Shown: one piece after another, positions 2,084-37,502 of the stretch
Layout of the letters: every line of letters begins with the position of its first letter
How positions within the stretch are numbered: position 1 is the stretch's first letter
DNA from: an uncultured Clostridia bacterium
GTDB taxonomy: Bacteria; Bacillota; Clostridia; Christensenellales; UBA1242
Assembly (NCBI GenBank): GCA_946496065.1
Contig: CAMMFF010000002.1
Location: forward strand, 35,916-99,915
Direction of reading: 5' to 3'
Length of the DNA: 64,000 bases
The notes under the pieces: model-generated
Databases searched by the model: none
What the model saw: only the letters and a program-made list of their open reading frames with translations
Told to the model about the DNA's origin: nothing
Translations under genes and position numbers: made by a program

Positions 2084-2114
2084 AAAAAAACGGAGTAGGT
2101 TCTCTCCTACTCCG
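2084..2114 (-). terminator. Intrinsic terminator inside the aspS leader (attenuator terminator)
   Basis: Minus strand reads CGGAGTAGG-AGAGAA-CCTACTCCG followed by TTTTTTT. It lies 25 nt after the leader-ORF stop and about 160 nt before the aspS ATG. Confidence 0.8.
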
Positions 2115-2139
2115 CCAATCAACTTTTTTCTGTCAACTG

Positions 2140-2226
2140 TTAATCAACAACGCAAAAGGAACCCATTAAGTTTAATGTGTTATTATTGTTATTATTGTTG
2201 TTGTTAACAGTAACAAAACTAAACAT
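2140..2226 (-). CDS. Asn-rich leader peptide (28 aa: MFSFVTVNNNNNNNNNTLNLMGSFCVVD)
   Basis: Not in the ORF track because it is too short. SD AAAGGAG lies 6 nt before the ATG at 2226. Nine consecutive Asn codons (AAC AAC AAC AAT AAT AAC AAT AAT AAC). TAA at 2142..2140. A terminator follows. Confidence 0.55.
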   Translation of the reverse strand: MFSFVTVNNNNNNNNNTLNLMGSFCVVD

Positions 2227-2254
2227 AACCTGCTCCTTTAAAAATTATATTATC

Positions 2255-2283
2255 ATTTTAATAGAAAAATTTGCATTTGTCAA
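2255..2283 (-). promoter_or_regulatory. Sigma-A-type promoter of the leader-aspS-gatCA unit
   Basis: Minus strand: TTGACA (2283..2278), 17 nt, TAAAAT (2260..2255). Confidence 0.6.
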
Positions 2284-2304: not shown

Positions 2305-2907
2305 TTAATACTGCAGAATTTTTTGATCATTTTGAGATTCATCTTTTCGCTCTTTAGCAAAAAAATCTCTTATTTTTCTCCAACTTTGAAAAGTTGATAA
2401 ATTGCCCTTTTTTAATCTTTTACCATTCTTTTTCACAATTGGTGAAAACAAAATTGGAATGGCACTTATCTCTTTTTGAACACTCTTACATGTCATCTCA
2501 ATGTCATCAATAAAATAATCTAATCTTGCAAATTTAACAAAATCAACTTTATTGTTGCACCCTAAAATCAATTTATCGTATTTTACTCCACTTCGCTTTA
2601 AAACATCAACAGTCATCGCCACAACAGATTTGAAACAAGGTCTATTTGAAACAAAATAAATCTCATAACCTCTTTGAGAAAGTTCATTAATAGTTTTTAC
2701 TGCATTTGTATAGAATGTATATTCATTTGGGTTTAAAAATTTGAAAATCTTATTAATAACCGAGCATTTATATATTTTTTCATCTGTAATTACATGATAA
2801 TTCAAAATCTTACCTCTATTAAAATTAAAGGTATTCATCCATCTATAAATTATAGAATTACAACTAAATAAAGTTTTATCTAAATCAATCCCTATTTTCT
2901 TTTTCAT
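2305..2907 (-). CDS. HAD-superfamily hydrolase/phosphatase
   Basis: N-terminal motif IGIDLDKTL (DxDxT). Later FVSNR and FIDD motifs fit HAD motifs II-IV. I place the start at ATG 2907. The track start at 2943 is a TTG that coincides with the -35 box. Confidence 0.7.
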   Translation of the reverse strand: MKKKIGIDLDKTLFSCNSIIYRWMNTFNFNRGKILNYHVITDEKIYKCSVINKIFKFLNPNEYTFYTNAVKTINELSQRGYEIYFVSNRPCFKSVVAMTVDVLKRSGVKYDKLILGCNNKVDFVKFARLDYFIDDIEMTCKSVQKEISAIPILFSPIVKKNGKRLKKGNLSTFQSWRKIRDFFAKERKDESQNDQKILQY

Positions 2908-2914
2908 ATTGAAA

Positions 2915-2943
2915 ATTATATAATAAATTAAAACATTTTTCAA
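2915..2943 (-). promoter_or_regulatory. Consensus promoter positioned for a leaderless HAD mRNA
   Basis: Minus strand: TTGAAA, 17 nt, TATAAT, then only 7 nt (TTTCAAT) before ATG 2907. No SD. Confidence 0.5.
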
Positions 2944-11320: not shown

Positions 11321-11350
11321 AAAAAAGGAAGCAAAACCGCCTCCTTTTTT
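11321..11350 (-). terminator. Intrinsic terminator after the 3,563-aa gene
   Basis: Minus strand: AAGGAGGC-GGTTTT-GCTTCCTT followed by TTTT. It overlaps the TAA stop. Confidence 0.75.
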
Positions 11351-14300
11351 ATATTGAACTTGAAGTGAGTGTAGGATCACCATACAAATTAAGCCTCAAA
11401 TAAGAGCCCGCTTTTAAAGCTGGATCTGTAGTCTCAAAACTAATATCACAATAATATTTGACATTATTTGAACTAAGTGAAGTTGCAAGAATTGTTTGCA
11501 AAGTTTCTCCAGTTTCATTCTCTTTTGTTTCAATGGTTAACCCTGGAATCTCATTCTCATCTGCCAAAACTTTCGCCGTTAATTTTAAATTTGTCAAAGA
11601 TTGAGACATGTCAAGGGCTTTATTTTCGCCAGTTAAAGATATGTAACAATTTGATACAGAGTGAGAAATTGAACTCTTGTTCGCGCCAACAATACCACCA
11701 ACATATATATCAATACTCGTACCATAAAGATAAACTATCGAATTTGCAGAAATAATAAAGTTGTTTGTTTTGTACACTGCTTCTCCACTTGCACTTGCAC
11801 TTTCATCCAAGCTTGAAGAAAGATTTATGATAGAGTTTGAACCAACATTTCCAACAAGTCCACCAATACCAACTTCAGCCAATCTATGTCCATAAACATA
11901 CATATTTGCATTGACGTTGACATCTGTGAAATAGATTGTGTTTGAAGGAGCATTAATATAACCAACAACACCACCAATGTAAGTGAAACCAGTAAGATTT
12001 GCATTCACTGTCACATTATCAAATTCAGATGGCCCTGTAACAAGACCTGCAATTCCACCGAGATATTCAACTCCAGTGCTTGCACTTTCATTGCTTATGG
12101 TGATTGATTGTGACATCTCAATGTTTGAAATGTTTCCACCACTGACAAGTCCAGCATAACCACCCAATGCAGTAGGCATATTAGGTGTTTTCATAAAGTT
12201 TGTAAATGGTTCAAGCATTCCAACAACTTTCACGTCATCAACAGTTCCTTTTGACTCGCCAACAACCAATCCACCATAGGAATAGGCATTGACAAGCATT
12301 CCACTTTGCATTTCAACAAGAATTTTTGAAACGTTCACATTTTCATCGATAAGACCAAACACAAGCCCTGCCTTGTCGCCCAAAACAGAAACCACAGTAT
12401 CTGTTTCACAATCATAGATTGAACCTGTTCCGCTTGCAACACCAATCAATGAACCTGCAAATGAATAAGACGAGTATTCCAACAAACCTGAATTGAAATC
12501 ATTTGAAGATGATTGATATCTTGCTTTTGCACTATATTGTGAATAAAGATTTTGAATGTTGTAGCGTCCAATTGCAAGACCGACCGCACCACCAACAATG
12601 TTCTTGCCAACAACGACAATTTGCTCTGAAGTTGAGCGAGTCAAGTTGACATTGTAGATGTTTCCACTGTCAACCTTACCGACCACTGCTCCAACAACAT
12701 CAGTGTTAGAGAATGAAACGGCTTGTGGATTGATGTTGAAGTTCATAATTGTTCCAACCGCGTCAAGAATTGTTGAACTTCCAAGTTCTGCAAACATACC
12801 TGCGGAGGTCATTGCCTCACTAGAAACCAAAGACATTCCAGAAATTGTCATGAAGTTTCCTTCCAAATATCCCATAAACTTTGTTTTGTAAAGCTTGCTG
12901 TTATAAAGGTATTCTGAATAGTCTATGTCAGAAATAATTCTATAATATGAATAGTTGTAATTTGCAGCATTATTCTCTTGCAAAATGTAATTTTCCATAT
13001 TTTCTGCACTGCTTATCAAAATTGGATTATAAACACTTCCAAGAGGATTACTGTTTGATGTGTATGTGTAAATATATTTTGCAGAAGTTGCTCCAGTTAC
13101 ATCATCGACGATGGTTTCAATTCTTTCAAGTTCTCTTTGAGAGAAAGCCACAATGTTTGGAGCAACAAGTTCCAATCTTTCAGTGTTAAAGACAGAACCA
13201 TTAAAGTTTGCCAAATTGCCAGCATCATCATTAAAGAACCAAACAGAACTGATTTCTCTTCCTTCAGCAACGACATATGATGAGAAGAATTTTTCAAGTC
13301 CGCCCTCTCCAAATTCCGCAGTGGTCAAAGGTGTGATATCCGTGTTTTCATTCAAAGTAATTTCCCCAATGCTTACATTGATGTCAACAGTTTGACCTCC
13401 AACAACAGACACATCACTTTCTGAAAGATAATAACAATCTTCAATTATGCCACTTTCGTCATCATTGTATCTAGCAAAGCCATAGTTTGAGGTCTGTTCA
13501 CTTTCCAAAACACTTGTAGAGAAACATCTTTCAACATTTCCAGAGTTTTCATAGACAAAACCCGAAGCAAACGCACCACTTTGTCTAAGTGTGATGTTGG
13601 AATAACAATCTTCCACGCTTCCGCTGTTTGTATAAACAAAACCGGAAATATTGTAACTTGATTGAATTGAATTGTCTTCTCCATAATAGAACATCATGTT
13701 GATTGTTGCCTGTCCGCTGACATATGATGTGTGGATTTCACCACTGTTTGAAACAGCAAAACCCGCAGTAAATTCACTTGTGGTGTTTGTTTCATTTTTA
13801 AGTGATGCACCCAAGTAATATGAACTTGCAATAATACCCGAATTTTGTCCGACAAAGCCTGCCAAGTTAACATTACAGAAAATGTTAATCTTAGAACGAG
13901 AATTTGTGATGTATCCTGTATTGTTTGCAACAAGTCCTGCAACATATGAAGTTTGAGCTGTTGTTGCACAAACTACGGACAAACATTCACTTCCCGTTGA
14001 ACTTCCAATGTGGCAGTTTGTGATGATTCCATTATTTGTTGCTGCAAGCAGTCCAACGTTAAATGTGCTTACATTCATTCTTATAACAACATCACTTGTC
14101 ATCATGATTGTGACATTTTGCAAGATAGAGTCTTCGGCAACTGATGAGAACACACCAAAATCAGAAAGAGTGTCATAAGAATATGTCCCTGCCATACGGA
14201 GATAATATCCATTTCCGTCAAGTCCAGCAATATTTGCAGTGATTGGAGAGAATTGTTCCAATCCATTTGCTGAAGCATATTCACTGCCTGGCAAAGTTAT

Positions 14301-17300
14301 GTCATTCAACAAGATGTACCATTCACCATCTTTCATATCCAAAAATTCTTCATATGTTTCAATAGGAATTGGGCTGTCTTCTGTGCTTTGTTGATGAACA
14401 TCAAACGAGAACACTGTATAAATTGGATTTGAATTTGTTGAAATTGAACTGTAAGCATACAAACCATTTTTCATTGTGTAGTTTGCACTTGCAGAGAAAT
14501 GATAGATGTCACTTTCAGACTCATAAATTCTCAGCGGTGTAACCACAAAAGAATTTATTGAGTAATAATCTGTTCTGATTGTCCTGCCTTCAGCAAGTTC
14601 TGTTGCTTCTCCGTTCAGGTAAACAGTCCATTTGATATTCTGCGTCATGTCTGCCACAAAATCTTCAACTTCTCTGTTTACAACAGCATTAGAGTCATCA
14701 TATTCCATAAACTCTTTAATGGCAAATTCCAAGGTATAAGGATTTCCAATGGCCGTTGAAATCACACCATTTTCCATGCCCTTGACAATGTCTTCATAGA
14801 CTCCATCGACATAGACATAATTCAAAACATATTCCATAACATAAATTGTCAGTGTGTCGGTCGTTGTTACAGTGACATTGTCAACGGTTTTTGTTGCAAC
14901 TGTATTAATTTCAATTTTATAACCAACATCATTGTTGTAATTGATGCTTTCAGATGTGACACTCAAAACATATTGACCATTAACTTTGGAAACATTTGCA
15001 ATAAAGTCATTGGTTGAAGTGATAGAAATTTGGTCTTCACTGAATCCATAATAATCCAAATTCAAATTGTAAGAAAGTCCACGGGCAACATAATAAACCC
15101 CACCAAAATCTTCTTTGTCTGCAAATGACAATTTTGCATAACTTCCAAGTTTTGTTTTAAGCATGATTGTTGAAGGCATTGAATATTGACCTTCATTTCC
15201 ATAAGTCACAGAAACGTCAAATCCAACATCAACACCATCATCAACATTGTTTGAAGGCATGTAATATGAAATATAAATTTTGCCTGTGTAACTTACAGAT
15301 GAATTTTCACCATTATCTTCAAAACTTTCATTCAAAGAATTGAAAAGGTCAATCATTTCTTGATATGCAAAACTGAAAGTTCCATTTGTGTATCTTCCAA
15401 ATGTCTGTGCCAAAACATATTCTTTGCTTGCATCAGCATTGATTTTTTCATAAGCAAATGTGAAGGTTGCTTCACTCGCTCTCTCAAGATAATTTGCTGC
15501 ATTGTTTGTTATAGAGAATTCATCAAAGACCGCTTCAACTGGATCAAGAGAAATCTCCAAAATTCCTCTTTGAGAAGGAACCACGATTTCATCTGCAACG
15601 GAAATATCATTGAAGTTTGAATAGTTATTAACGCTTACATAGTTGATTTCAGCTTCGTCGAGCAAAATCTTGAAAGAATATGTCACACCATTTTCAAGTT
15701 CACTGCAATAGAGATGAACGGTGTATTCCCCATAAATATCATTTTCGAATCTGTTTAAGAACTTATCTCCACTTGCATTGATTTGACAACTGAATTCAAA
15801 GACATTCTCACCTGTTCTTGAAAATCTCAAATTGAACAAATCAGATTGAGTGATTGTGTTCATGTAAGAAAGCCAAGCATCTTCACGATTTTCAGCGGTA
15901 TCAAATTGTGTCAAATTCTCTGGCAGTCTGTCTTGAACCAAACTTCCATTCTTATCAAAAATTTGATAGAAAACAAGTTCATTCTTGTTTGTAGAAACAA
16001 CCGTCACAGTGTCCTTGAATGTGTTGTTTGTCTGCATTGAGTGATATTTTGAATTTGTTCTTATTGATGTTGCAGATTCTTTGTATGTGACATTCAAATT
16101 GATGGTAGATTTGTCAAGTGCATAATAGAATTCATATTTTTCTGTTCCAATTTGAATGACAACCTTGAGCATTGGCGTCAAACTGTAAGTGTCAACATCT
16201 CCCTCATTTACAGTTTTTGATTTATCCTTGAAGAAAACAATGGTTTGTTTGTTGATTTGCACTGAAGAGAAATATGGTTGTTCATAATACGAACCAATGT
16301 CATTGACATCAGGATTTGTCACAAGCACATAAGAATTTGTTTCTGCATCATATGTGAAATATTCCTTTCCATCAACAATCGCCGTGTCAGAAGTTTGCAC
16401 ATATTCTGTTTTTTGTGCAGATGGCACTTCAATTTGAGTGTTTTTAGAAAGGTTATAACTTACATTTTTGTATGTCAACACACCTCCAGTAGTGATTGTA
16501 AATTTGTCACCATTATATGTCACACCGTCATTCAAATTGTATGTTGGAACAACATGAACATTGGTATTTGAATTTCCATAAATGTTCAAATTGCTTCCGT
16601 CGGTGATGTTAACACCATTGATGTTTCCACTGGTATAGAAAATTGAAGAAGAAACATCTTTATCAAAATAGTTGACAATGTAAATGTAGATTACTCTTGA
16701 TTGAACAACATTCAAAATGCTTGTCAAAGTGATTGTCGCAAGGCCCGTTCCTTTAACAGTCAAATTTCCATTGACATCAACTGATAATATGTTTGAATTT
16801 GAAGATGTGATGTTGACATCTTGACTTCCCAATGAGAAAGGATAGAAGTTTGAATTTGGATTGATAAAGTTCAAATCTTCAATTTCATCTTGAGCACTTG
16901 CATTGCCTTCTTCATAAAGTTTTCCTTGAACTGAGAAGTAATACATAAAGTAAACGCCAACATCAGCAGTTGCACCACCACTTGGTGTCATAGCGTATTC
17001 ACTCTCGTCCAAAGCCAAGTCAACTTCTTTGAATTCAAACCTGTATGATTGAGTGATATGAATTCCATCTGAAGCCACATTGAGAATGATGTAATCGCCA
17101 TAATAATTTGCAACAGAAACAGAATTGTCCACAACAACATCAGTGCTTTCAACCTCTGTAAAATCTCTCTTCAAATATGAGTATGCCTTAAACGAATAGG
17201 TTGCATAACTTCTTGAGTTTCTTGTTGAGTTTCCAACTGCATAGAAAGTAGTTTTTGAAAGTTCTGTATCATCTGGCAAATTGTCCAATCTCTTGAATTT

Positions 17301-20300
17301 GATTATTGATGATGCATAGAAGTTGTTTCTTCCATCATCAACCGCTTCAATAACATTGCCTGTGCCAAAATTTGTGTAAACACTGTAATCAACAGCATAG
17401 GTGTCATAACCAGCAATTCCACCAACATATTCATTTGCTCTGAGGAAGACTCTTGAAGTGTTGTTCAATACATCAATTGTTGCAACCTTCAATGTGTCAG
17501 CATAACCAACAATCCCACCAACAGCATCAATATAATTCACGGTTTCAGATGTGTCAATCTCTCCACCAACAAGCAAATTGGATATGGTGTTTCCAGTCAT
17601 AGGCATATCAGTATCAAGCAAAATTTCATTCAAACTTGTTGTTCCTGTGTTATAAGTCGCAACACCGACAGCACCACCAACATAAATCTTGTCATAGTCG
17701 TTATAATTCTTTGTTCCAGTGACAGAAATCATTGTGTATGCCGAATAAGCAGCATAGCCATAAAGTTTCAAACTTGAAGAAGAAATCTTTTTAATAACCC
17801 CAGAAGAAGCACCTGCGATACCACCAGCATAGACATTTGTTGAGGCAGTTGCAATATTGACAAATCCTTCATAATAAGCCAGGTTTTTGCTGTTTTGTCC
17901 AGTGTAATCTCTGCTGCTTAAAAGAACATTTCCTTCATCATCATATTTGATTCTGTTTCCATTTTCGTCAATGGCATACTTATCTTTGTCAACAAAAATT
18001 TTATTATCAGCATCATCAATGATGTAGTTATTTCCATTTTCATCTGAATAAATGACTTTATCGCTATAGATTTTGTAGTTATATCCCGTGCCGTCATATT
18101 TTGTAAAGTCTTGAATTATGCTTCCATAATTCACTCCGGCAACCGCACCAAAATACAGCACTCTTTGACTTTGCACCATGTTGATTGAGGACTCGCCAAT
18201 TCTCACACCAACATTTATCATCTCACCTTTATTTACAGCGGACAAAAGTCCAACATAAGCCCTTGAAGAAACATTCAAATCAAATTCACCAGAGAAAGAA
18301 ACATTTTCTATCGTTGGCGTAACCAAATCTGAATTTGGATCATCTGCATCAACCCTATAAGGTGCATTCAATTGAGCAATAAGTCCTGTGTAGAGAATAT
18401 CCACACTTCCGCTGATGGTTTCTTTTCTGACAGTTGCAGAGAAGTTATTTTCCGAGACAACAATATTTGTTATCGCTGCCTGGGAGTTTGAACCAATAAT
18501 TGAACCACTAAATCCATAAAGAACGTTTTTTCCATCAACATTCAAAATTCCAATAGGTGTAAAGTTTCTAACAGTTGACATATCAATAACTGTGGAAATT
18601 TCGTAGTGGCTCTTCAAAGTTGTTTCATTTGCATTGATTCCAACCACATCTTCTGCAGTTTCAAGCAAATAAGGATTTGCTCTTGAACCATTTCTATATT
18701 GCACATCAATGACAATCGGCTGCAATTCAGATGCAATTGATGTGTAAGAGTCTCCCCATTCAGCAGGATAGATATAAATTCTTCCAGTCAAATAGTCCTC
18801 AATGTTAACAATGTTGTCTTTATTTTCATTGAAGAAATCTTCACAAGAAAGATTAACCGTATAAACACCGCTTGCACTTTCAGAAGTGTCAATGTTCCAA
18901 GTAACCATGTTAACATAAGGGTTTCCATTTGTTCTCACAAATTCCACTCTAACATTTTTATTGGTTGAAGTTGTTGGATATGTGTAAACCCCGATGCTGT
19001 AATTCAATGCGTTGTTTGAGAAATTCAATTCTGTCAAGCTTGTTGCCAAAGAAATGCTTTCAACAGATTGATAAAGTCTTGTCTCAATCTGACAATCATA
19101 TTTCTTTGTTGAATTTCTCTGTCTAAGATTTGCACTTAAAGAAAGGTTGTAAACCGCCTGCATATTGTTTCTATATGTAAAGGAATCCATGTCGAAAGTT
19201 CCATAAGTGTCAATTGAATAGATGTTTGAGAATTCAACAGTATAAGTTGCAACAACATCTCCAATCTCGTTTCTGTCAACATATTCAAAATCACTTGATA
19301 AAAACATCAATCCATTTGTCAAAGCAAGCATAATGGTCTTTGTTTCCGACTTGGTTTGCCCATCAAGAACATATGTCTTTGTGACATTAACCTCTGTCAC
19401 TGTTGATGCAGTTGTGTAGGAATTATTTCCACTGCTTGAATAAACAACCTGAGCATAGAAATAGATAAATTTTCTGTTATATTTTTCGTAAACCATTTCT
19501 GTGTAGATTTGGTTATTGCTTATTGTGTAATTATAATAAGGATAATAAATATTCCCTTCATCATCTTCATCTTCAACAGGGATTGCATCTTCAAAAATGT
19601 CAACAAATGCTTTTTCATCAAAGAAATATTGATAGAAGTTCATTGAATTTGCATAATTTGCAACAGGTGTCAAAGTCGCTGTTTCATCTTCTTCCTGCAA
19701 ACTTCCCGAAACACCACCTGTAACGTAATAAACAACATTGTTCAAAGCAAAATTGTCGCCATTTTTCATGTAAAATTCGTCAACTAATGAGTATGAACTC
19801 ACATTGACATAAAGTTTGATTTCCTTAGATTTTGTTCTGAAATCTTCCACCTCAAGACCGGTCAAAGTGAATGTAATTTTTGTCATTCCATTGTCGAGAG
19901 TGGAGATTCGATAAGTGTTGTTAATTTTGGAAACAGAAACAAAACCACTTTCATTAGGAACATACTTGATTCCATCAGAGTTGACATTTGCTGTAATTGT
20001 AAATTGAGCCACATTGCCAAATGTCACCCCTGTTTTTGTGGAAGGATTCAAAATTTCAATGTTCAAAGCATTGTCAAAGTCAGCGTTATCTTCAACACTA
20101 TAATATGCTTCCGTAACCGATTCATTTCCCTCATTTGTAAGTTGAATGCTCGTCGTGTCAGATGAAAGTGTTTTGATGACATTAAATGTCAAATCAATTG
20201 GCATACCATTGTCAAGATAAACACGATAGACACCGATTCCAGTAAGTCTTGGCGTCAAAGACAAATTGAGATAGAATTTGTCGCCAACTTCGGTGTATGG

Positions 20301-22040
20301 ATTTTCATCATTTGTATCAATTTCCAACACATCAACACCACTTAAGAAAGTGTATGTTGTATATTGAAAAGCATGGTCTGCATAAACTTGCAAGTCAAAG
20401 TTTTTGCTTCCACTGTTATAATCCAAATAGAAATAATTGCTTGAATAATTCTCATCAACCAAAACAGAAGTTGCACCTGCAATGATACTGCAATTGATAT
20501 CAATTGTCAGTTCATCACCTTCTTGCAAAATGTTGCTTTTCAAGTGAACTGTGACAACCAAATTTGAAATTTGATTGATTCCCAACTTTCCTCTTATATA
20601 GAATGGTGTATCCAAGTCTGTATAGAGTCTGGCATCACCAGAATTTACCGTCATGTTGTTGTAAATAATATCGAGATATGTGCTGTCGTAAGTAAAGTAA
20701 ACCCCTTCATAATTTGGAGATGAAGAGTATCCAGAAATGACATCAATCAAAAGTTCGTTCCAACCAAATTCTGGATAACGATAATAGTTATACAAAATCA
20801 ATCTGTCCGGCTCAGAAGTGCCGTTAACCGTCAGCCCAGTTGGTGCAATTTGAATGTCAACAGTGTAATCTTTTCTTATGTTCACACTCTCATCATCAAT
20901 TCCCTGAGCAATGTCGTAGAAAATGTCAAAAGACAAGTTTGTTGTTGCCTGTGTTTGAGAATTTTGAGAAATTTTCAAATAATAAACAGTTCTATCCTCA
21001 TCATCTTCCGCTTCAAAATCAAAGAAATCAATATCAACATAATTATTTGATTGGGTTTTTGTCATCTTCAATGGAGAGTCAGCAATGGAGTTGTCCATCT
21101 CGATTTTCAAGACATATTGAACCATGTGAGTGTTGTTTGGAACAATGACAATTTCATCACTATCAAGCGGTTGAAAATCAACAGCCCCAGTGTTAATATC
21201 CATATAACCACCAGAGATTGTGGCGTTGATATCTGGCAAAACATAAACTGAAGCAACATCATAGACAATGTTTTCATAATCTTCATTGCCAACAGAGTGG
21301 TCATAGACTGCCATAAACAAAAACTCGCTCTGCAAATCTATTTCACTCTCGACACCATTCAAACTCAAAATCAAAGAATTGGTTTCATTTTTAACCAAAC
21401 TAACTTTGTCAAATTGTTGAATTGTTGCCTCTGCATAGTTGACACCATCAAAGAAACTTGCCAAACTCTCTTCCAAATCCAAGTTTGTCAAAGTGTATGT
21501 ATTGAAATTGATGTCACTTCTAGGTTGCAAATAATAATAAGTCAACTCTTTGTGTGTTGTGTTGCTGTCAAAAATAAACAAGTCAGAACTTGGAACAAAA
21601 TCTGTTTTGTTTGAAACATACAAAACACTGTTGTCAAACTCCATAGAAGAAGACCATTGTTCAACATAGACATCAACAACACACTCTTTTCCAGCCTCCA
21701 AAGTGCTGACAGAAAGCTCTCCATGTCCTCCAGCAACACCAGTGACAGTCACTTTGATTTCATTATTGCTTATGTAAACTGGATCAGAAACACTGAAAAC
21801 TGCAGTTTGCCCATCAGCACGAGGGTTGACTTGAATTTTGTTGCTGAAACCACTTTGATAGTTTTCAATTGTGAAGGTCAAATCAACACTTTCACCAACC
21901 TCCAATTCAATTGATTGCTTGTCAGAGACAAGAGAAATTTTGCTGTAATCCACCGAACAGCCAACAAAAAAGAAACCTGCAAACAAAAATGCAAACATTC
22001 CACAAATACTTATTAAAATGTTCTTAAAAACTTTTGTCAT
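11349..22040 (-). CDS. Giant surface lipoprotein (3,563 aa): Ig-like N-terminal domains plus three GLUG-motif beta-helix modules
   Basis: Uninterrupted 10.7-kb ORF with SD AAAGGAAG. Signal peptide with lipobox (FFFVGC). Big_2-like first domain. About 20 motifs of type Y[VI]GG[IV][AV]G..N.G.I by eye. Module entries: NPYLLETAEDVVGI... (aa ~1122), PIETYEEFLDM...LDGNGYYL, and NPILISSAENMENY... Confidence 0.9.
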   Translation of the reverse strand: MTKVFKNILISICGMFAFLFAGFFFVGCSVDYSKISLVSDKQSIELEVGESVDLTFTIENYQSGFSNKIQVNPRADGQTAVFSVSDPVYISNNEIKVTVTGVAGGHGELSVSTLEAGKECVVDVYVEQWSSSMEFDNSVLYVSNKTDFVPSSDLFIFDSNTTHKELTYYYLQPRSDINFNTYTLTNLDLEESLASFFDGVNYAEATIQQFDKVSLVKNETNSLILSLNGVESEIDLQSEFLFMAVYDHSVGNEDYENIVYDVASVYVLPDINATISGGYMDINTGAVDFQPLDSDEIVIVPNNTHMVQYVLKIEMDNSIADSPLKMTKTQSNNYVDIDFFDFEAEDDEDRTVYYLKISQNSQTQATTNLSFDIFYDIAQGIDDESVNIRKDYTVDIQIAPTGLTVNGTSEPDRLILYNYYRYPEFGWNELLIDVISGYSSSPNYEGVYFTYDSTYLDIIYNNMTVNSGDARLYTDLDTPFYIRGKLGINQISNLVVTVHLKSNILQEGDELTIDINCSIIAGATSVLVDENYSSNYFYLDYNSGSKNFDLQVYADHAFQYTTYTFLSGVDVLEIDTNDENPYTEVGDKFYLNLSLTPRLTGIGVYRVYLDNGMPIDLTFNVIKTLSSDTTSIQLTNEGNESVTEAYYSVEDNADFDNALNIEILNPSTKTGVTFGNVAQFTITANVNSDGIKYVPNESGFVSVSKINNTYRISTLDNGMTKITFTLTGLEVEDFRTKSKEIKLYVNVSSYSLVDEFYMKNGDNFALNNVVYYVTGGVSGSLQEEDETATLTPVANYANSMNFYQYFFDEKAFVDIFEDAIPVEDEDDEGNIYYPYYNYTISNNQIYTEMVYEKYNRKFIYFYAQVVYSSSGNNSYTTASTVTEVNVTKTYVLDGQTKSETKTIMLALTNGLMFLSSDFEYVDRNEIGDVVATYTVEFSNIYSIDTYGTFDMDSFTYRNNMQAVYNLSLSANLRQRNSTKKYDCQIETRLYQSVESISLATSLTELNFSNNALNYSIGVYTYPTTSTNKNVRVEFVRTNGNPYVNMVTWNIDTSESASGVYTVNLSCEDFFNENKDNIVNIEDYLTGRIYIYPAEWGDSYTSIASELQPIVIDVQYRNGSRANPYLLETAEDVVGINANETTLKSHYEISTVIDMSTVRNFTPIGILNVDGKNVLYGFSGSIIGSNSQAAITNIVVSENNFSATVRKETISGSVDILYTGLIAQLNAPYRVDADDPNSDLVTPTIENVSFSGEFDLNVSSRAYVGLLSAVNKGEMINVGVRIGESSINMVQSQRVLYFGAVAGVNYGSIIQDFTKYDGTGYNYKIYSDKVIYSDENGNNYIIDDADNKIFVDKDKYAIDENGNRIKYDDEGNVLLSSRDYTGQNSKNLAYYEGFVNIATASTNVYAGGIAGASSGVIKKISSSSLKLYGYAAYSAYTMISVTGTKNYNDYDKIYVGGAVGVATYNTGTTSLNEILLDTDMPMTGNTISNLLVGGEIDTSETVNYIDAVGGIVGYADTLKVATIDVLNNTSRVFLRANEYVGGIAGYDTYAVDYSVYTNFGTGNVIEAVDDGRNNFYASSIIKFKRLDNLPDDTELSKTTFYAVGNSTRNSRSYATYSFKAYSYLKRDFTEVESTDVVVDNSVSVANYYGDYIILNVASDGIHITQSYRFEFKEVDLALDESEYAMTPSGGATADVGVYFMYYFSVQGKLYEEGNASAQDEIEDLNFINPNSNFYPFSLGSQDVNITSSNSNILSVDVNGNLTVKGTGLATITLTSILNVVQSRVIYIYIVNYFDKDVSSSIFYTSGNINGVNITDGSNLNIYGNSNTNVHVVPTYNLNDGVTYNGDKFTITTGGVLTYKNVSYNLSKNTQIEVPSAQKTEYVQTSDTAIVDGKEYFTYDAETNSYVLVTNPDVNDIGSYYEQPYFSSVQINKQTIVFFKDKSKTVNEGDVDTYSLTPMLKVVIQIGTEKYEFYYALDKSTINLNVTYKESATSIRTNSKYHSMQTNNTFKDTVTVVSTNKNELVFYQIFDKNGSLVQDRLPENLTQFDTAENREDAWLSYMNTITQSDLFNLRFSRTGENVFEFSCQINASGDKFLNRFENDIYGEYTVHLYCSELENGVTYSFKILLDEAEINYVSVNNYSNFNDISVADEIVVPSQRGILEISLDPVEAVFDEFSITNNAANYLERASEATFTFAYEKINADASKEYVLAQTFGRYTNGTFSFAYQEMIDLFNSLNESFEDNGENSSVSYTGKIYISYYMPSNNVDDGVDVGFDVSVTYGNEGQYSMPSTIMLKTKLGSYAKLSFADKEDFGGVYYVARGLSYNLNLDYYGFSEDQISITSTNDFIANVSKVNGQYVLSVTSESINYNNDVGYKIEINTVATKTVDNVTVTTTDTLTIYVMEYVLNYVYVDGVYEDIVKGMENGVISTAIGNPYTLEFAIKEFMEYDDSNAVVNREVEDFVADMTQNIKWTVYLNGEATELAEGRTIRTDYYSINSFVVTPLRIYESESDIYHFSASANYTMKNGLYAYSSISTNSNPIYTVFSFDVHQQSTEDSPIPIETYEEFLDMKDGEWYILLNDITLPGSEYASANGLEQFSPITANIAGLDGNGYYLRMAGTYSYDTLSDFGVFSSVAEDSILQNVTIMMTSDVVIRMNVSTFNVGLLAATNNGIITNCHIGSSTGSECLSVVCATTAQTSYVAGLVANNTGYITNSRSKINIFCNVNLAGFVGQNSGIIASSYYLGASLKNETNTTSEFTAGFAVSNSGEIHTSYVSGQATINMMFYYGEDNSIQSSYNISGFVYTNSGSVEDCYSNITLRQSGAFASGFVYENSGNVERCFSTSVLESEQTSNYGFARYNDDESGIIEDCYYLSESDVSVVGGQTVDINVSIGEITLNENTDITPLTTAEFGEGGLEKFFSSYVVAEGREISSVWFFNDDAGNLANFNGSVFNTERLELVAPNIVAFSQRELERIETIVDDVTGATSAKYIYTYTSNSNPLGSVYNPILISSAENMENYILQENNAANYNYSYYRIISDIDYSEYLYNSKLYKTKFMGYLEGNFMTISGMSLVSSEAMTSAGMFAELGSSTILDAVGTIMNFNINPQAVSFSNTDVVGAVVGKVDSGNIYNVNLTRSTSEQIVVVGKNIVGGAVGLAIGRYNIQNLYSQYSAKARYQSSSNDFNSGLLEYSSYSFAGSLIGVASGTGSIYDCETDTVVSVLGDKAGLVFGLIDENVNVSKILVEMQSGMLVNAYSYGGLVVGESKGTVDDVKVVGMLEPFTNFMKTPNMPTALGGYAGLVSGGNISNIEMSQSITISNESASTGVEYLGGIAGLVTGPSEFDNVTVNANLTGFTYIGGVVGYINAPSNTIYFTDVNVNANMYVYGHRLAEVGIGGLVGNVGSNSIINLSSSLDESASASGEAVYKTNNFIISANSIVYLYGTSIDIYVGGIVGANKSSISHSVSNCYISLTGENKALDMSQSLTNLKLTAKVLADENEIPGLTIETKENETGETLQTILATSLSSNNVKYYCDISFETTDPALKAGSYLRLNLYGDPTLTSSSI

Positions 22041-22090: not shown

Positions 22091-24799
22091 CTATTTCCCT
22101 TCAAACAATTGTTTCACATAATCTTGCGCAATAATCTGCACTGTCGTTCTTGCAGAAGGACTTGTAATCAAGAATGCTTGACCAACGCCCGCAGTAACGA
22201 TTGAGTTTTGCTCTTCTTCATTGATACCACCAGATTTTTCATACAACTGAACAAGGTCGTTGATATCTGCCGGAGCAAGCGAGAAAATAAGAGAGTATTG
22301 ACACGCGTTAATAACCGCAGTTGATTGACGCCTGATTTCTTCAGTTCCAACGAAGTCGGAAATGTTCTGAGTAATGATGATTTGCATACCGCCATACTTT
22401 CTGATACGCTTAGCCATTTGAGCCATGAAGTCCAAAGCGATAGGATATTTTGGGTTAATGAAGATATGCGCCTCATCAACCGCAACAATAATCTTTCTGT
22501 TCTTACGATACTTTTTGTTGAAATCCTTGTTGTTAATGATTTCGTTGTTCAAATATCTAAATACCAAAAGCATTTGGGCGTTTGTAACAGTTGGGTTGTT
22601 TCCAGCAACAAGGGATTGGAAGTTGAATGTAACGAAGTTTTCGTTTGTTTCAATAGATGTTGGGCCATTCCACAGAGAGCTGTTTCTTCCGCCTGTTGCA
22701 AATTTTTTGATGTAAGTTTCAACCGTCATCAAGTTTCTCAAGGAGAATTCATCCTTGGCTGTTTTAATTCTTTTCAAAATCAAATCATAAAGAGCATCAA
22801 AAGTTGGATAATCTTCTGGTTTAAGCCTTGCAAGGTTTGTTCTGTAGTCAATGCCAAACTCCTTATACATATCAATGATAAGAGAGTTCAAAACTTCAAA
22901 CGCGTCAGCATTGATTCCTTCCAAAATAACTCTGAAGAATTGTTCCAAGAACTGCAAGTGTTGAGAGAAAGAGTCATCAACTTTCTTTGTAACAACTTTT
23001 TTCTTCTCAATTTTTCTTCCAAAAGCATCATATTCTTCTTCATCTTCATCTTCGTCTTCTTCCTCGTCCTCAGACGCCTCCAAAGAAGCAATAACGTGGA
23101 AAGGATTGATGATACCATGAATGGAAGAACCAACATCAATAAACTTACCACCAAGGTTTCTTGTCAAGTCTTGATATTCGTTTTCTGGGTCAAGAATGAA
23201 AATCTTACAGTTGTCAGCAGCAAGGTTTGTCAACAATGTTTTTGTTGCATAACTCTTACCAGAACCAGATTTCCCAATAACCATCATGTTTGAGTTAACT
23301 CTTTCTCTGTCTCTCTTGAAGAAGTCAACAAAAACAGGATATTCGTTGTCCCCGATGTAAATTCCATTAGGGTCTTGCAAAGCATTTGAAATAAATGGGA
23401 AAGTTGCTGCGAGTGTCGAAGTTGGAATTCCTCTCATAGTGCTTTTGAAAGAATCCCTTTTTGAGACATTGGAAGAAATAAATCCATCAATTTGTCTTGA
23501 AAAAAGTTCTGAATATTTGAACCCCTGTTGCTTAAGCATCGCTCTGACATCTTTCTTTGCGGCATCTTCAGCAACAATGTATGTGTTGACATTGAAAAGT
23601 TGTTGGTTGTTATTTTTTAAACTTACAAGCAAATCTCTCAAAGTTTCAAGGTGAGTTTGAAGTTCAATTTGAGCAGAGCTTCTTCCAACTTTATAGAGTT
23701 TTGCTTCCATTTCCATGATTGCACGGTCAATTTGTTTTTCTGAGTCAAGTTTTGGAATTGGAGAGAATTTCATAACAACCTTAGTTCTGTCCAAAAGGAA
23801 AAATTGTGCGCCCCATGCGTTTCCAACCTGCAAAGGATAGTCAATCAAGTTGTAGCAACGATAGCATTGGTTGTCAAGGAAGTAACGCGCAATGTTGAAT
23901 TTGATTTTGTCAGGGGTTGCCCAGTTTATGTATTCTGAAATTGGAATGATTTCCAAATCTCTTTCATCAAAGTTTTTCCCAAGATTTGCCTTCAAGAAGA
24001 CAACCAAGTCAGTTCCTTCCAATCTTTTTGCAATGATAGGGTTCAAAGAAGAAGCCATCGCATTGATCATACCAGAAGTGGTATTTTCCAAAATTTCCAT
24101 ATCTTTGTCATAAACAATCAAATAGAAATGGTCTTTGAAAATTTTGGACTGTCTGTTCATAAATTCATACAAAGAAACTCTTTCTTCAAAAATAGGAGCA
24201 CGAGCGTCAATTTCTGCCTGAGAAATTTGTCCATCATATTGCATATCATACAAAACATCATACTTATGGTTTTCGTTGTAGATATATCTGTCCAAAATCA
24301 TTGGCTTGCTGATTTTGATGATTGAACAAGTTTGATCACCATTAAGTCTTCGAAGAGCATTTGCAAAACTCTCAATGACGTTATCTTGATAATATTCAGT
24401 AAGCAAAGTAAAGAACATTGGTTGCACTTCAATAACTTGTGCATAATATTGTCCAAAGTTGATAAATCTGTCTTGATAGATGCTTTCGTATGCAATCATT
24501 TCATGAATGTCAGATTTTTTCTTTTCTCCGTCACCCTTTGAGAATTTTTTCTTCTGAACGGAATAGCGAAGCAAAAAAACCAACGTGTTATAAAAACGAG
24601 TGTCATCAGTGAATTTGAAGAACATTGAAACTGCAATAATACACCAAGCGACACCAATCCAGATATGTAATTCAAAGTTTGCCATAAACAAAATGATGGC
24701 AATCACAGCAAAAATCAAGCCCAACAAAATATCAAGCCCTGTGACACCTCTGACAAATTCTGATTTAACTTTTGTCTTTCTAGGAATAACTCTAACCAT
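22091..24799 (-). CDS. PrgI/VirB3-like two-TM segment fused to a VirB4/TrsE-family (AAA_10/DUF87-like) secretion ATPase
   Basis: 902 aa. N-terminus IPRKTKVKSEFVRGVTGLDIL plus two hydrophobic helices (PrgI-like). Walker A VIGKSGSGKSYATK, then ILDPENEYQDL. Walker B IVAVDEAHIF, then IIITQNISDF. SD GAGGGG. There is a 50-nt gap and no terminator before the giant gene. Confidence 0.8.
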   Translation of the reverse strand: MVRVIPRKTKVKSEFVRGVTGLDILLGLIFAVIAIILFMANFELHIWIGVAWCIIAVSMFFKFTDDTRFYNTLVFLLRYSVQKKKFSKGDGEKKKSDIHEMIAYESIYQDRFINFGQYYAQVIEVQPMFFTLLTEYYQDNVIESFANALRRLNGDQTCSIIKISKPMILDRYIYNENHKYDVLYDMQYDGQISQAEIDARAPIFEERVSLYEFMNRQSKIFKDHFYLIVYDKDMEILENTTSGMINAMASSLNPIIAKRLEGTDLVVFLKANLGKNFDERDLEIIPISEYINWATPDKIKFNIARYFLDNQCYRCYNLIDYPLQVGNAWGAQFFLLDRTKVVMKFSPIPKLDSEKQIDRAIMEMEAKLYKVGRSSAQIELQTHLETLRDLLVSLKNNNQQLFNVNTYIVAEDAAKKDVRAMLKQQGFKYSELFSRQIDGFISSNVSKRDSFKSTMRGIPTSTLAATFPFISNALQDPNGIYIGDNEYPVFVDFFKRDRERVNSNMMVIGKSGSGKSYATKTLLTNLAADNCKIFILDPENEYQDLTRNLGGKFIDVGSSIHGIINPFHVIASLEASEDEEEDEDEDEEEYDAFGRKIEKKKVVTKKVDDSFSQHLQFLEQFFRVILEGINADAFEVLNSLIIDMYKEFGIDYRTNLARLKPEDYPTFDALYDLILKRIKTAKDEFSLRNLMTVETYIKKFATGGRNSSLWNGPTSIETNENFVTFNFQSLVAGNNPTVTNAQMLLVFRYLNNEIINNKDFNKKYRKNRKIIVAVDEAHIFINPKYPIALDFMAQMAKRIRKYGGMQIIITQNISDFVGTEEIRRQSTAVINACQYSLIFSLAPADINDLVQLYEKSGGINEEEQNSIVTAGVGQAFLITSPSARTTVQIIAQDYVKQLFEGK

Positions 24800-29177: not shown

Positions 29178-29918
29178 ATGAAAAAGAAAGAAAAAATATC
29201 ACACGAAGGACATCGTGAAAGATTGTTAAATCTTGTTTACAATGTTGGGCTGGAAAATGTCAGTGAAGTGCAAGCGGTTGAATACTTCTTGACATATGTT
29301 TTTCCTCGTGGTGATGTCAACCCACTTGCTCACACACTCCTGAATCGCTTTGGAAATTTCGCAAATATTGTTGATGCGGACTATAATGAACTAATGAAAA
29401 TTGACGGCATCAACGACCGTAGTGCAAAAAGAATCAAGATGATACGTGGTTTCTTCACATATTATCCTTTTGTTAGAATGAAAAAGAGAATAAGTTTGAA
29501 GAACAATCGCGAGTTTTACAGATTCTTAAGTGGCCTTTTGAGATTTGAAGAAACCGAAAATCTTTACATTTTCGCCATAGACCACAGTTTCAAACTTCTT
29601 CAAAAACGCAGTTATGACCTAAACAAGGTTAGACAAGTTGGGATTCAACCAATGGATTTATATAACTACATCTCTTCAACCAAGGCGACATATCTTGCAG
29701 TTGCACACAATCATCCACACGGAACAGCAGAGCCATCTAAGGACGACCATCAAGCAGTCAAATACATTGAACAACTCTTGCAAAATGTTGATTGTAAACT
29801 TCTGGACAGCTTCATTGTTGGAGAAGACGGAATTTACAGCGAACGTAACGATGGTTTCATAGAAAATTTTGACGAAGAAAACATAATAGATTTTCTGGAC
29901 ACATCATCAATAAAATAA
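29178..29918 (+). CDS. radC: RadC-like JAB/MPN domain protein (paralogue 1)
   Basis: 246 aa. N-terminal HEGHRERL plus an HhH-like ELMKIDGINDRSAKRI. JAMM motif AHNHPHG..EPSKDD. Starts 6 nt after fba. Confidence 0.85.
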   Translation: MKKKEKISHEGHRERLLNLVYNVGLENVSEVQAVEYFLTYVFPRGDVNPLAHTLLNRFGNFANIVDADYNELMKIDGINDRSAKRIKMIRGFFTYYPFVRMKKRISLKNNREFYRFLSGLLRFEETENLYIFAIDHSFKLLQKRSYDLNKVRQVGIQPMDLYNYISSTKATYLAVAHNHPHGTAEPSKDDHQAVKYIEQLLQNVDCKLLDSFIVGEDGIYSERNDGFIENFDEENIIDFLDTSSIK

Positions 29919-36761: not shown

Positions 36762-37502
36762 TTATTTAACAACCGAACTGAATGCCTCTTTAAGTTGTTC
36801 AATGTCATAATAATGCCTAACTATTTGGTTGGCTTTCATGCTGTAAACACCCTCTTCTCCAACTATGTATGAATCAATAAAATTAACTCCACAAGTTGTG
36901 CAAAGATTATTAATGATGTCAAAGCCCTCTTTGTCTTCTTCAGAAGGCACTGCTTTCCCATATGGATGACAGTGAGCAACCACAAGAGAAACAGGTTTTG
37001 AAGTTGCCATAAACTTGGTCAATTCCAAAACAGGAATTCCGACCATGCTTGAATTGTGCATATTAATTCGTCGCTTGTGCGTAATAATGTTTCCAGCACT
37101 GATGGCAAGAATGAGCATATTTTCAGCGGTACGAAAACGTAAATGGTCTTCAATGACATCAATAATGTCGCCGATGTTTTTAACAACATATTTTCTGCCC
37201 ATTTTTGCAGAAGTGTAGTAATAGAACAACTCGCCAAACATACTGATTTTCTTGGCAGCACGTTCATTGATTCCATCAATTCTCATAAGATCATTGACAT
37301 CAGCATCAACAATTTGAGCAAAGGTTTCGTATTCTTCCAAAAGACGATGAGCGAGAGGGTTGACATCTCCACGAGGGAAGATATAAGTCAAGAAAAACTC
37401 AACGACTTGAATATCACTCATATTGTCAACCCCTGCATTCAGGGCCAAATCCAGCAATCTCACACGATGCCCCTCGTGCAATTTCCCATCATTTTTCTTC
37501 AT
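36762..37502 (-). CDS. radC: RadC-like JAB/MPN domain protein (paralogue 2)
   Basis: 246 aa, colinear with paralogue 1 (HEGHRVRL, FLTYIFPRGDVNPLAH, LMRIDGINERAAKKI, AHCHPYG..VPSEED). SD AGGAG. Starts 20 nt after the giant-gene stop. Confidence 0.85.
   Translation of the reverse strand: MKKNDGKLHEGHRVRLLDLALNAGVDNMSDIQVVEFFLTYIFPRGDVNPLAHRLLEEYETFAQIVDADVNDLMRIDGINERAAKKISMFGELFYYYTSAKMGRKYVVKNIGDIIDVIEDHLRFRTAENMLILAISAGNIITHKRRINMHNSSMVGIPVLELTKFMATSKPVSLVVAHCHPYGKAVPSEEDKEGFDIINNLCTTCGVNFIDSYIVGEEGVYSMKANQIVRHYYDIEQLKEAFSSVVK

Follow-up and report, generated by a model that had tools for sequence, protein, structure and literature searches.

A candidate asparagine-sensing leader-peptide attenuator upstream of the aspS-gatCAB transamidation operon in uncultured gut Clostridia

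Leader-peptide attenuators are textbook regulators for tryptophan, histidine, threonine, leucine, isoleucine/valine and phenylalanine. By 2010 nearly all known leader peptides came from Proteobacteria and Actinobacteria, and in Bacilli histidine leader peptides were predicted to take the place of T-boxes in front of hisS paralogues (Naville and Gautheret 2010, PMC2965389). A T-box also controls the transamidation operon of Clostridium acetobutylicum, according to the passages of PMC4052509 and PMC4206432 in which Saad et al. (2012, 2013) are cited, and 14 putative leader peptides for synthetase and biosynthesis genes are listed in a study of Deinococcus deserti (PMC4007540). The element described here lies in a 64,000-nucleotide (nt) stretch of DNA from an uncultured Clostridia bacterium (contig CAMMFF010000002.1 of assembly GCA_946496065.1, positions 35,916–99,915), referred to below as the window, and precedes an operon that begins with aspS, a gene for an archaeal-type aspartyl-tRNA synthetase (AspRS), and continues into gatCAB. 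Sequence comparison and folding calculations make it very probable that this element is a ribosome-mediated leader-peptide transcription attenuator acting on aspS-gatCAB, which would sense Asn-tRNA(Asn), the asparagine (Asn) form of its tRNA, and in many relatives also Asp-tRNA(Asp), its aspartate (Asp) counterpart.

All elements of the leader lie on the minus strand between positions 2283 and 2084 of the window, and the promoter, ribosome-binding site, short open reading frame (ORF) and Asn codons listed by a first-pass annotation of this DNA are all present where it had placed them. A sigma-70-type promoter (2283–2255), with a TTGACA −35 box (2283–2278), a 17-nt spacer and a TAAAAT −10 box (2260–2255), matches the consensus at 11 of 12 positions, and a TTGACA/TATAAT-like pair occupies the same relative position in most relatives whose upstream sequences were compared. 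It is followed by a Shine-Dalgarno (SD) sequence, AAAGGAG (2239–2233), and by an ORF of 28 codons plus stop (2226–2140, with its ATG at 2226) encoding the peptide MFSFVTVNNNNNNNNNTLNLMGSFCVVD. Nine consecutive Asn codons of this ORF, AAC or AAT (2205–2179), constitute the putative sensor, or region 1, and a tenth Asn codon is found at 2172–2170. The nine-codon run is not due to chance. It is the sole run of at least five AAY (AAC or AAT) codons on either strand of the window, for which first-order Markov simulations (35% G+C) predict 0.06 such runs, and runs of at least nine codons appeared in none of 200 simulations.

Beginning 25 nt after the stop codon, a 9-base-pair hairpin core (CGGAGTAGG) followed by seven T residues had been reported in the initial reading of this DNA, and it proves to belong to an intrinsic terminator (2116–2089) whose stem, GGCGGAGUAGG/CCUACUCCGUU, comprises 10–11 pairs closed by the loop AGAGAA, with the T7 run at 2090–2084. 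Some 160 nt separate this terminator from the ATG of aspS at 1924. The gene itself (1924–626) encodes an archaeal-type non-discriminating aspartate–tRNA(Asn) ligase (NF003483, 436 bits against a cutoff of 353) and is followed on the same strand by gatC (613–341) and by the 5′ part of gatA (341–1), encoding its N-terminus and cut by the window edge, as the first-pass annotation had recognized. In a relative that is 98% identical (L001; individual loci are given such handles where they need to be told apart) the operon runs on through gatA and gatB. Its products are Asp-tRNA(Asn) and Asn-tRNA(Asn).

The element that links the leader ORF to the terminator is a long-range pairing between the block GGGUUCCUUUU...GUUGAUUAAC and GUUGAUUGGCGGAGUAGGAGAGAACCUA, whose core joins GGGUUCC to the terminator loop GAACC and the 5′ arm. 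The 5′ strand of this antiterminator, region 2 (AUGGGUUCCUUUUGCGUUGUUGAUUAAC, 2166–2139), spans codons 21–28 and the stop codon, and includes the U-rich block GGGUUCCUUUU (2164–2154, of which GGGUUCC occupies 2164–2158), the most conserved block of the leader. The 3′ strand, region 3 (2123–2096), consists of the terminator 5′ arm, the loop and the first four nt of the 3′ arm. In the window the region 2:region 3 duplex reaches −19.3 kcal/mol (z = −4.6 against dinucleotide shuffles of region 2), and the antiterminator hairpin (2166–2096) has a free energy of −27.1 kcal/mol, compared with −17.5 kcal/mol for the terminator. This key pairing with the terminator loop was absent from the earlier account of the locus, which had instead sketched possible alternative pairings from the complementarity between the Asn run (GTTAACAACAAC) and the segment spanning the leader stop codon (GTTGTTGATTAAC), together with a second GTTGATT copy. 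That complementarity is real, but it is weak, the Asn run forming no duplex stronger than −8.9 kcal/mol with the sequence downstream of it; rather than the antiterminator core, the two elements represent the 1:2 interaction and part of the antiterminator base.

Taken together, the leader has a translatable ORF, clustered codons for the amino acid of the pathway, an intrinsic terminator between this ORF and the first gene, and an exclusive antiterminator that in the calculations depends on ribosome position, while across relatives codons and pairings are conserved and the peptide is otherwise free to vary. From this we infer the following course of translation, stalling and read-through in the cell. 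Transcription would start from the promoter at 2283–2255 and a ribosome would load on the leader ORF. When Asn-tRNA(Asn) is plentiful this ribosome would cross the nine Asn codons and advance onto region 2 (GGGUUCCUUUU...UAA, 2166–2139), and with region 2 occupied the terminator (2116–2089 and its U7 tract) would fold, ending transcription some 160 nt short of aspS. Under a shortage of Asn-tRNA(Asn) the ribosome would stall within the Asn run and region 2 would emerge naked, free to pair with 2123–2096, so that the terminator could not nucleate and RNA polymerase would read into aspS-gatCAB. In a leader that is not translated at all, region 2 would be held in pairing by the SD and the Asn run, allowing the terminator to form. 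The proposed logic is of the trp/his type, 1:2 together with 3:4 pairing meaning termination and 2:3 pairing meaning read-through.

Conservation of this arrangement was followed in 160 loci with AspRS relatives, drawn from reference genomes and metagenomes, and in 10 more obtained by exact-protein look-ups. Six of the latter contributed new distinct leaders, L161 came without upstream DNA, L162 duplicated L006, and L168 and L170 bore no leader element; a metagenome scan gained few close relatives. An Asn/Asp-run mini-ORF followed by a hairpin and T-run is found upstream of aspS in 26 distinct loci whose AspRS identity ranges from about 46 to 98%. Their hosts are uncultured gut Clostridia and other Bacillota, some of them labelled ‘Catabacter sp.’ and one Candidatus Caccovivens. 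Within a close clade (68–98% AspRS identity) all loci with enough upstream sequence carry the leader layout, with the exception of L168, and the same layout recurs in a second, distant clade (about 46–51%). A further candidate, L037, admitted by a relaxed Asn/Asp filter, was rejected as its Asn-rich stretch lies within a longer ORF. All 26 loci possess the ORF with its start codon, have the run in frame, and place the terminator hairpin and T-run at this position, and of the 25 loci in which the stretch before the ATG can be checked 24 have an SD there, the contig of L019 ending 8 nt before the ATG. In the remaining locus, L018 (3840–3931), the leader ORF lacks an SD and a TATAAT box ends 6 nt before the ATG, and the leader peptide appears to be translated from a leaderless mRNA.

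Several properties of the leader would also suit a switch made of RNA alone, binding a protein, a tRNA or a metabolite, in which the AAY repeats would form part of the structure or bind the ligand, the ORF being incidental and untranslated: the leader folds far better than its shuffles (z = −5.3), the Asn run is complementary to region 2, and a T-box, itself a pure RNA sensor, occupies this position in more distant relatives. The codons of the run, however, behave as codons. Among 190 run codons from the relatives, A occupies position 2 without exception, the first position holds A 170 times and G 20 times, and the third is divided between C (69) and T (121); this variation at the wobble position, with a period of three around an invariant second position, points to selection on codons and not on a pairing strand. 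The core run measures 3–10 codons in the relatives (at least six in 25 of 26) and is made of Asn, joined by Asp in 12 loci. Asp is also the commonest residue interrupting the run (12 of 21 interruptions), and as the other amino acid charged by the non-discriminating AspRS it fits the second substrate of the enzyme rather than base pairing. Considering, in addition, the SD and start codon that precede the run, its unfailing reading frame, and the failure of every Rfam model to match, an RNA-only switch appears very unlikely.

A different objection would hold that the small ORF is an independent gene for a secreted or modified Asn-rich peptide, equipped with its own terminator, and that aspS is transcribed from a separate promoter further downstream. 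Leader ORF and terminator do resemble a complete small transcription unit, gene callers have annotated 29-residue ORFs in some assemblies (matching ones occur in L163, L166 and L169), and a TGnTATAAT-like extended −10 element, TGTTATAAT (2084–2076, minus strand), directly follows the T-run in the window. Yet this element is shared by L001, and in the form TGTTATAGG by L011, and is not conserved in the other relatives, so that it is probably no dedicated aspS promoter. In eight of the nine distant-clade loci the terminator lies 21–51 nt from the aspS start, too close for a separate promoter to fit in between (the distance in L084 is 175 nt). Moreover, each of the 32 Asn-rich codon runs encountered on both strands of 937 kilobases (kb) of fetched DNA is located no more than 450 nt upstream of aspS and on its strand. 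Nor does the peptide behave as a gene product, since sequences such as MLMLINNNNNNNLNTLFIMGSFCIVD, MIRIIDNNNNNNCVSVTK, MTTLFCVINNNNNNNTATRLV, MFTLVNNNDNNNDNTI and MHVNNNDNNDF have only the run in common, and the recurring MGSF reflects a nucleotide block, GGGUUCCUUU, that is kept even out of frame or after the stop codon. With the terminator loop constrained, in addition, to complement region 2, an independent peptide gene is very unlikely. The first-pass annotation had made its case dependent on relatives keeping the ORF, its SD and the Asn run, and these are indeed kept upstream of aspS in the 26 distinct loci as the rest of the peptide drifts.

Conservation at the RNA level is concentrated in region 2. 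In an alignment of whole leaders by MAFFT, which aligned region 2 well and misaligned several terminators, GGGUUCCUUUU shows little or no variation among the 17 sequences of the close clade, with GGGUUCC at a distance of 50–68 nt from the ATG. The block may be read as M-G-S-F, in another frame (L012), or stand after the stop codon (L005, L006, L009), and in the distant clade it is replaced by GGGUUUUUAUUG. Terminator stems vary between species, but their apex in the close clade is nearly always GGAA(A)CC or a close variant of it; in the window the apex is GGAGAGAACC (2107–2098), with the loop GAACC at 2101–2097. Apices in the distant clade mostly mimic the Asn run, as in CAAUAAAAACCC. Directly 5′ of region 2 the window also contains a small AU-rich hairpin, CAUUAAACUUAAUG (2177–2164, minus strand), kept in the sub-clade whose peptides include (T/A)LNLMGSF, which could cause the polymerase to pause before it reaches the U-rich block.

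A translated ORF might instead report general translation capacity, or act through nascent-peptide arrest in the manner of ermC or secM, and in neither case would Asn-tRNA(Asn) be sensed specifically. Whatever slowed the lead ribosome in the run would set region 2 free, and arrest might conceivably be brought about by the conserved L-N-L-M-G-S-F block. Against this, the Asn/Asp run is the sole feature common to the 26 peptides, MGSF is missing from 13 of them, and its conservation is accounted for at the RNA level. Furthermore, the regulated genes make Asp-tRNA(Asn) and Asn-tRNA(Asn), and the syntenic T-boxes described below use an AAC specifier, both of which point to Asn specificity. Readings in which the leader is a general sensor or an arrest peptide are accordingly given very little credence.

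Support for the attenuator reading also comes from the co-evolution of regions 2 and 3. In all loci region 2 is complementary to the terminator 5′ arm, its loop and the first bases of its 3′ arm, and the resulting duplex is more stable than those of shuffled sequences in 26 of 26 cases, with a mean z of −3.3; the E. coli leaders thrL and hisL, run as controls through the same pipeline, gave z = −3.2 and −2.7, respectively. Cognate pairs of region 2 and region 3 average −16.2 kcal/mol compared with −12.3 kcal/mol when the partners are swapped between loci, a difference equalled by none of 10,000 permutations, and the effect persists within each clade after removal of near-duplicates (p = 0.0006 and 0.027).

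The geometry of these elements matches the footprint of a ribosome. Counted from the first base of the last run codon, region 2 begins 15–26 nt downstream (15 nt in the window), placing it outside the footprint of a ribosome stalled on that codon, and it either lies inside the ORF, as in the window, or begins 0–17 nt past the start of the stop codon, where it is covered by a ribosome that has completed the run. In the clade of the window the antiterminator strand lies inside the ORF in 13 of 17 loci and engages a terminator loop that is conserved in sequence. When the RNA is truncated before the terminator 3′ arm is complete, a long region 2:region 3 helix is predicted as long as region 2 is free, and a ribosome at the stop codon leaves the terminator 5′ arm unpaired. 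For the window, folding only the RNA 3′ of the ribosome yields a terminator probability of ~1.0 with the A-site on codons 2–9, 0.0–0.2 on codons 12–17, and again 1.0 from codon 18 onwards. Without a ribosome this probability is 0.99 because region 2 then pairs with the SD, to which it is complementary, so that in untranslated RNA it behaves as an anti-SD; in the full-length minimum free energy fold of the window it is GGGUUCCUUU that pairs with the SD. The first-pass annotation had called for a competitor of the terminator; there is one, and in these calculations it shifts with the position of the ribosome as expected.

A number of observations weigh against this interpretation. Once the full terminator is present, equilibrium folding favours it at all or almost all ribosome positions in most relatives. 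Equilibrium folding with a ribosome footprint is not diagnostic, since the E. coli thrL and hisL leaders behave identically, but it does imply that the switch must be kinetic, as it is for these two leaders. Equilibrium relief of termination in the window is confined to stalls at codons 12–17, comprising the final five codons of the Asn run and the Thr codon after them, and does not extend to the first Asn codons. The antiterminator helix is largely rich in G-U pairs, and as its core, GGGUUCC:GGAACC, is invariant, classical compensatory covariation is not countable and the case for co-evolution rests on the swap test. In two loci (L165 and L051) the distance from the start of the stop codon to region 2 is 17 nt, which places region 2 at the very edge of the footprint of a terminating ribosome. 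Two relatives, L168 and L170, with 63 and 55% identity, respectively, have neither leader nor T-box, and all sequences derive from metagenome-assembled genomes (MAGs) of uncultured gut bacteria and from metagenomes.

The first-pass annotation had seen no T-box in this region, and covariance models bear this out, matching neither a T-box nor any other Rfam family here. The T-box model RF00230 has no match in the window at its gathering threshold, nor in positions 1800–2500 up to E = 10, and no Stem I, specifier loop or T-box sequence is found in the window. A regular expression for the T-box core likewise has no matches in the leader-bearing genome loci (L001–L080). At gathering level no Rfam family matches anywhere in the 64 kb, the histidine, tryptophan, threonine, leucine and phenylalanine leaders included, and a cmscan search of 1800–2500 up to E = 10 returned matches at chance level only, the best being mir-569 and a Streptococcus small RNA far below their thresholds. 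With the leader conserved, a competing structure present and no riboswitch model matching, the interpretation of this locus as an Asn-sensing attenuator, as first proposed, is supported.

T-boxes do, however, occupy the corresponding position elsewhere. A T-box-like core is located upstream of aspS in 29 loci, and those tested are confirmed by Rfam with scores of 119–149 bits. Confirmed T-boxes lie about 90–480 nt upstream of aspS in L022, L024, L026, L027, L029 and L054, and that of L014, some 1.3 kb upstream, may belong to another gene. By analogy with the glyQS layout, L022 would have a GAC (Asp) specifier, and L026, L029 and L054 would each have an AAC (Asn) specifier. Where upstream sequence extends to 300 nt or more, 31 loci have a leader, 29 a T-box-like core and about 92 neither. 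The aspS-gatCAB layout is identical behind a leader (L016, L020) and behind an AAC T-box (L026, where gatCAB is confirmed downstream of T-box and aspS). One MAG, JAFTYD01 (isolate RGIG4256), contains both an aspS behind an Asn-run leader (L016 and L017, two contigs with identical leaders) and an aspS behind a T-box with a GAC specifier (L022), which, provided that the bin is not a mixture, suggests two AspRS paralogues, one under the control of Asn-tRNA and the other of Asp-tRNA. Two loci depart from the usual gene order. In L169 (126–1751) an Asn/Asp leader fronts an aspS that is not followed by gatCAB, and in L170 (1001–3290; 55% identity), which has neither leader nor T-box, the gene after aspS encodes a second class IIb synthetase, of 463 residues, and is possibly asnS.

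The two kinds of sensor are expected to differ in what they report. A T-box reads only the acylation of the tRNA 3′ end, and EF-Tu discriminates against Asp-tRNA(Asn). A ribosome-based sensor should thus report the finished Asn-tRNA(Asn), a distinction from Asp-tRNA(Asn) to which a T-box is blind. It would follow that a shortage of GatCAB, with a build-up of Asp-tRNA(Asn), induces the operon where the sensor is ribosome-based but not where it is a T-box. Gut Bacillota in which the same aspS-gatCAB operon is fronted either by the leader or by an AAC T-box offer a side-by-side comparison of two sensors of tRNA charging.

Between the terminator and aspS lies a second potential translation unit, also on the minus strand (2065–1995), composed of an SD (2065–2059) and a mini-ORF (2051–1995) encoding MKFLRYKINALLGEVSLI, in which an in-frame Asn codon stands directly 5′ of a GCCC-UGUU-GGGC hairpin (motif at 2027–2012). 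This mini-ORF is present in 16 of 17 close-clade loci (counterparts in L002, L004–L013, L163, L164, L166, L167 and L169), conserved only in its U-AAY-GCC(C/G)-N3-5-GGGC portion, which always reads N-A-x-x-G. Three tandem copies share one frame in L012, and L005 and L007 have two hairpins each. Neither the distant clade nor L165 possesses it, Rfam contains no counterpart, and RNAalifold analysis of the segment from terminator to aspS identified the two invariant pairs of the small GC hairpin as its only conserved structure. The second mini-ORF probably belongs to the regulatory leader. A two-tier arrangement can tentatively be envisaged, though it is rather unlikely as it stands, in which the attenuator displaced an ancestral or alternative Asn T-box because the ribosome, by virtue of EF-Tu gating, reads only finished Asn-tRNA(Asn), and the second mini-ORF serves as a translation-coupled checkpoint on read-through transcripts. 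Such a checkpoint, acting for example on aspS translation, mRNA stability or Rho access, would be previously undescribed.

Other features of the window concern its neighbourhood rather than the leader. AspRS and leader are 98% identical between the window and L001, but the adjoining upstream genes differ, being a 212-residue HAD/acid-phosphatase-like ORF in the window (2305–2943) and a 332-residue ORF with no Pfam match in L001 (2636–3634), and a recent rearrangement seems to have ended right at the leader promoter. Further along the window, two giant ORFs of 3563 and 6688 residues flank a gene for a VirB4-like conjugal-transfer ATPase (11349–22040, 37523–57589 and 22091–24799, respectively, all on the minus strand). 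The best match of the ATPase is the Mbov_0397 family of integrative conjugative elements, at 573.5 bits just under the cutoff of 590, and two RadC-family genes are located nearby (29178–29918, plus strand, and 36762–37502, minus strand). This region may be an integrative conjugative element carrying giant surface proteins.

Attenuation of this kind is mechanistically classical, and it is the Asn/Asp specificity and the transamidation-route target for which no earlier report was found. Full-text literature searches returned no Asn or Asp leader peptide, the D. deserti table of 14 putative leader peptides (PMC4007540) lying outside the text they covered, and so do not contradict the original remark that no Asn leader-peptide attenuator had been described. 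The novelty pertains to the leader-peptide form, as sensing of Asn-tRNA on a transamidation operon is already known in the form of the C. acetobutylicum T-box (as cited in PMC4052509 and PMC4206432). In practical terms, the 29-residue ‘hypothetical proteins’ annotated upstream of aspS in these genomes are to be read as leader peptides, and further members of the family may be sought by a signature combining an Asn/Asp run, a GGGUU-U-rich element and a terminator apex complementary to that element.

Compared with the described systems, the closest in design are the E. coli leaders trpL, hisL, thrL, leuL, ilvL, pheL and pheM (the last preceding pheST), which likewise consist of an SD-led ORF with a run of cognate codons and an intrinsic terminator, and have mutually exclusive 1:2, 2:3 and 3:4 pairings between which the position of the ribosome decides. 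Unlike these, the window leader would sense Asn, and those of its relatives often Asp as well, the regulated genes make an aminoacyl-tRNA by an indirect route and not a free amino acid, and the hosts are Clostridia and other Bacillota. The hisS leaders of Bacilli provide a second parallel, being predicted leader-peptide attenuators on a synthetase gene of Firmicutes that alternate with a syntenic T-box (PMC2965389); they differ from the present leader in amino acid (His as opposed to Asn/Asp), gene family and clade, and have no sequence relationship to it. Finally, the T-box of C. acetobutylicum, as described in PMC4052509 and PMC4206432, resembles the window leader in its location, the 5′ leader of an operon for tRNA-dependent formation of Asn-tRNA(Asn), and in its output, since both would report the charging of tRNA(Asn) by way of a terminator. 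What sets the window leader apart from this T-box is that sensing would proceed through a translating ribosome rather than through direct binding of the tRNA.

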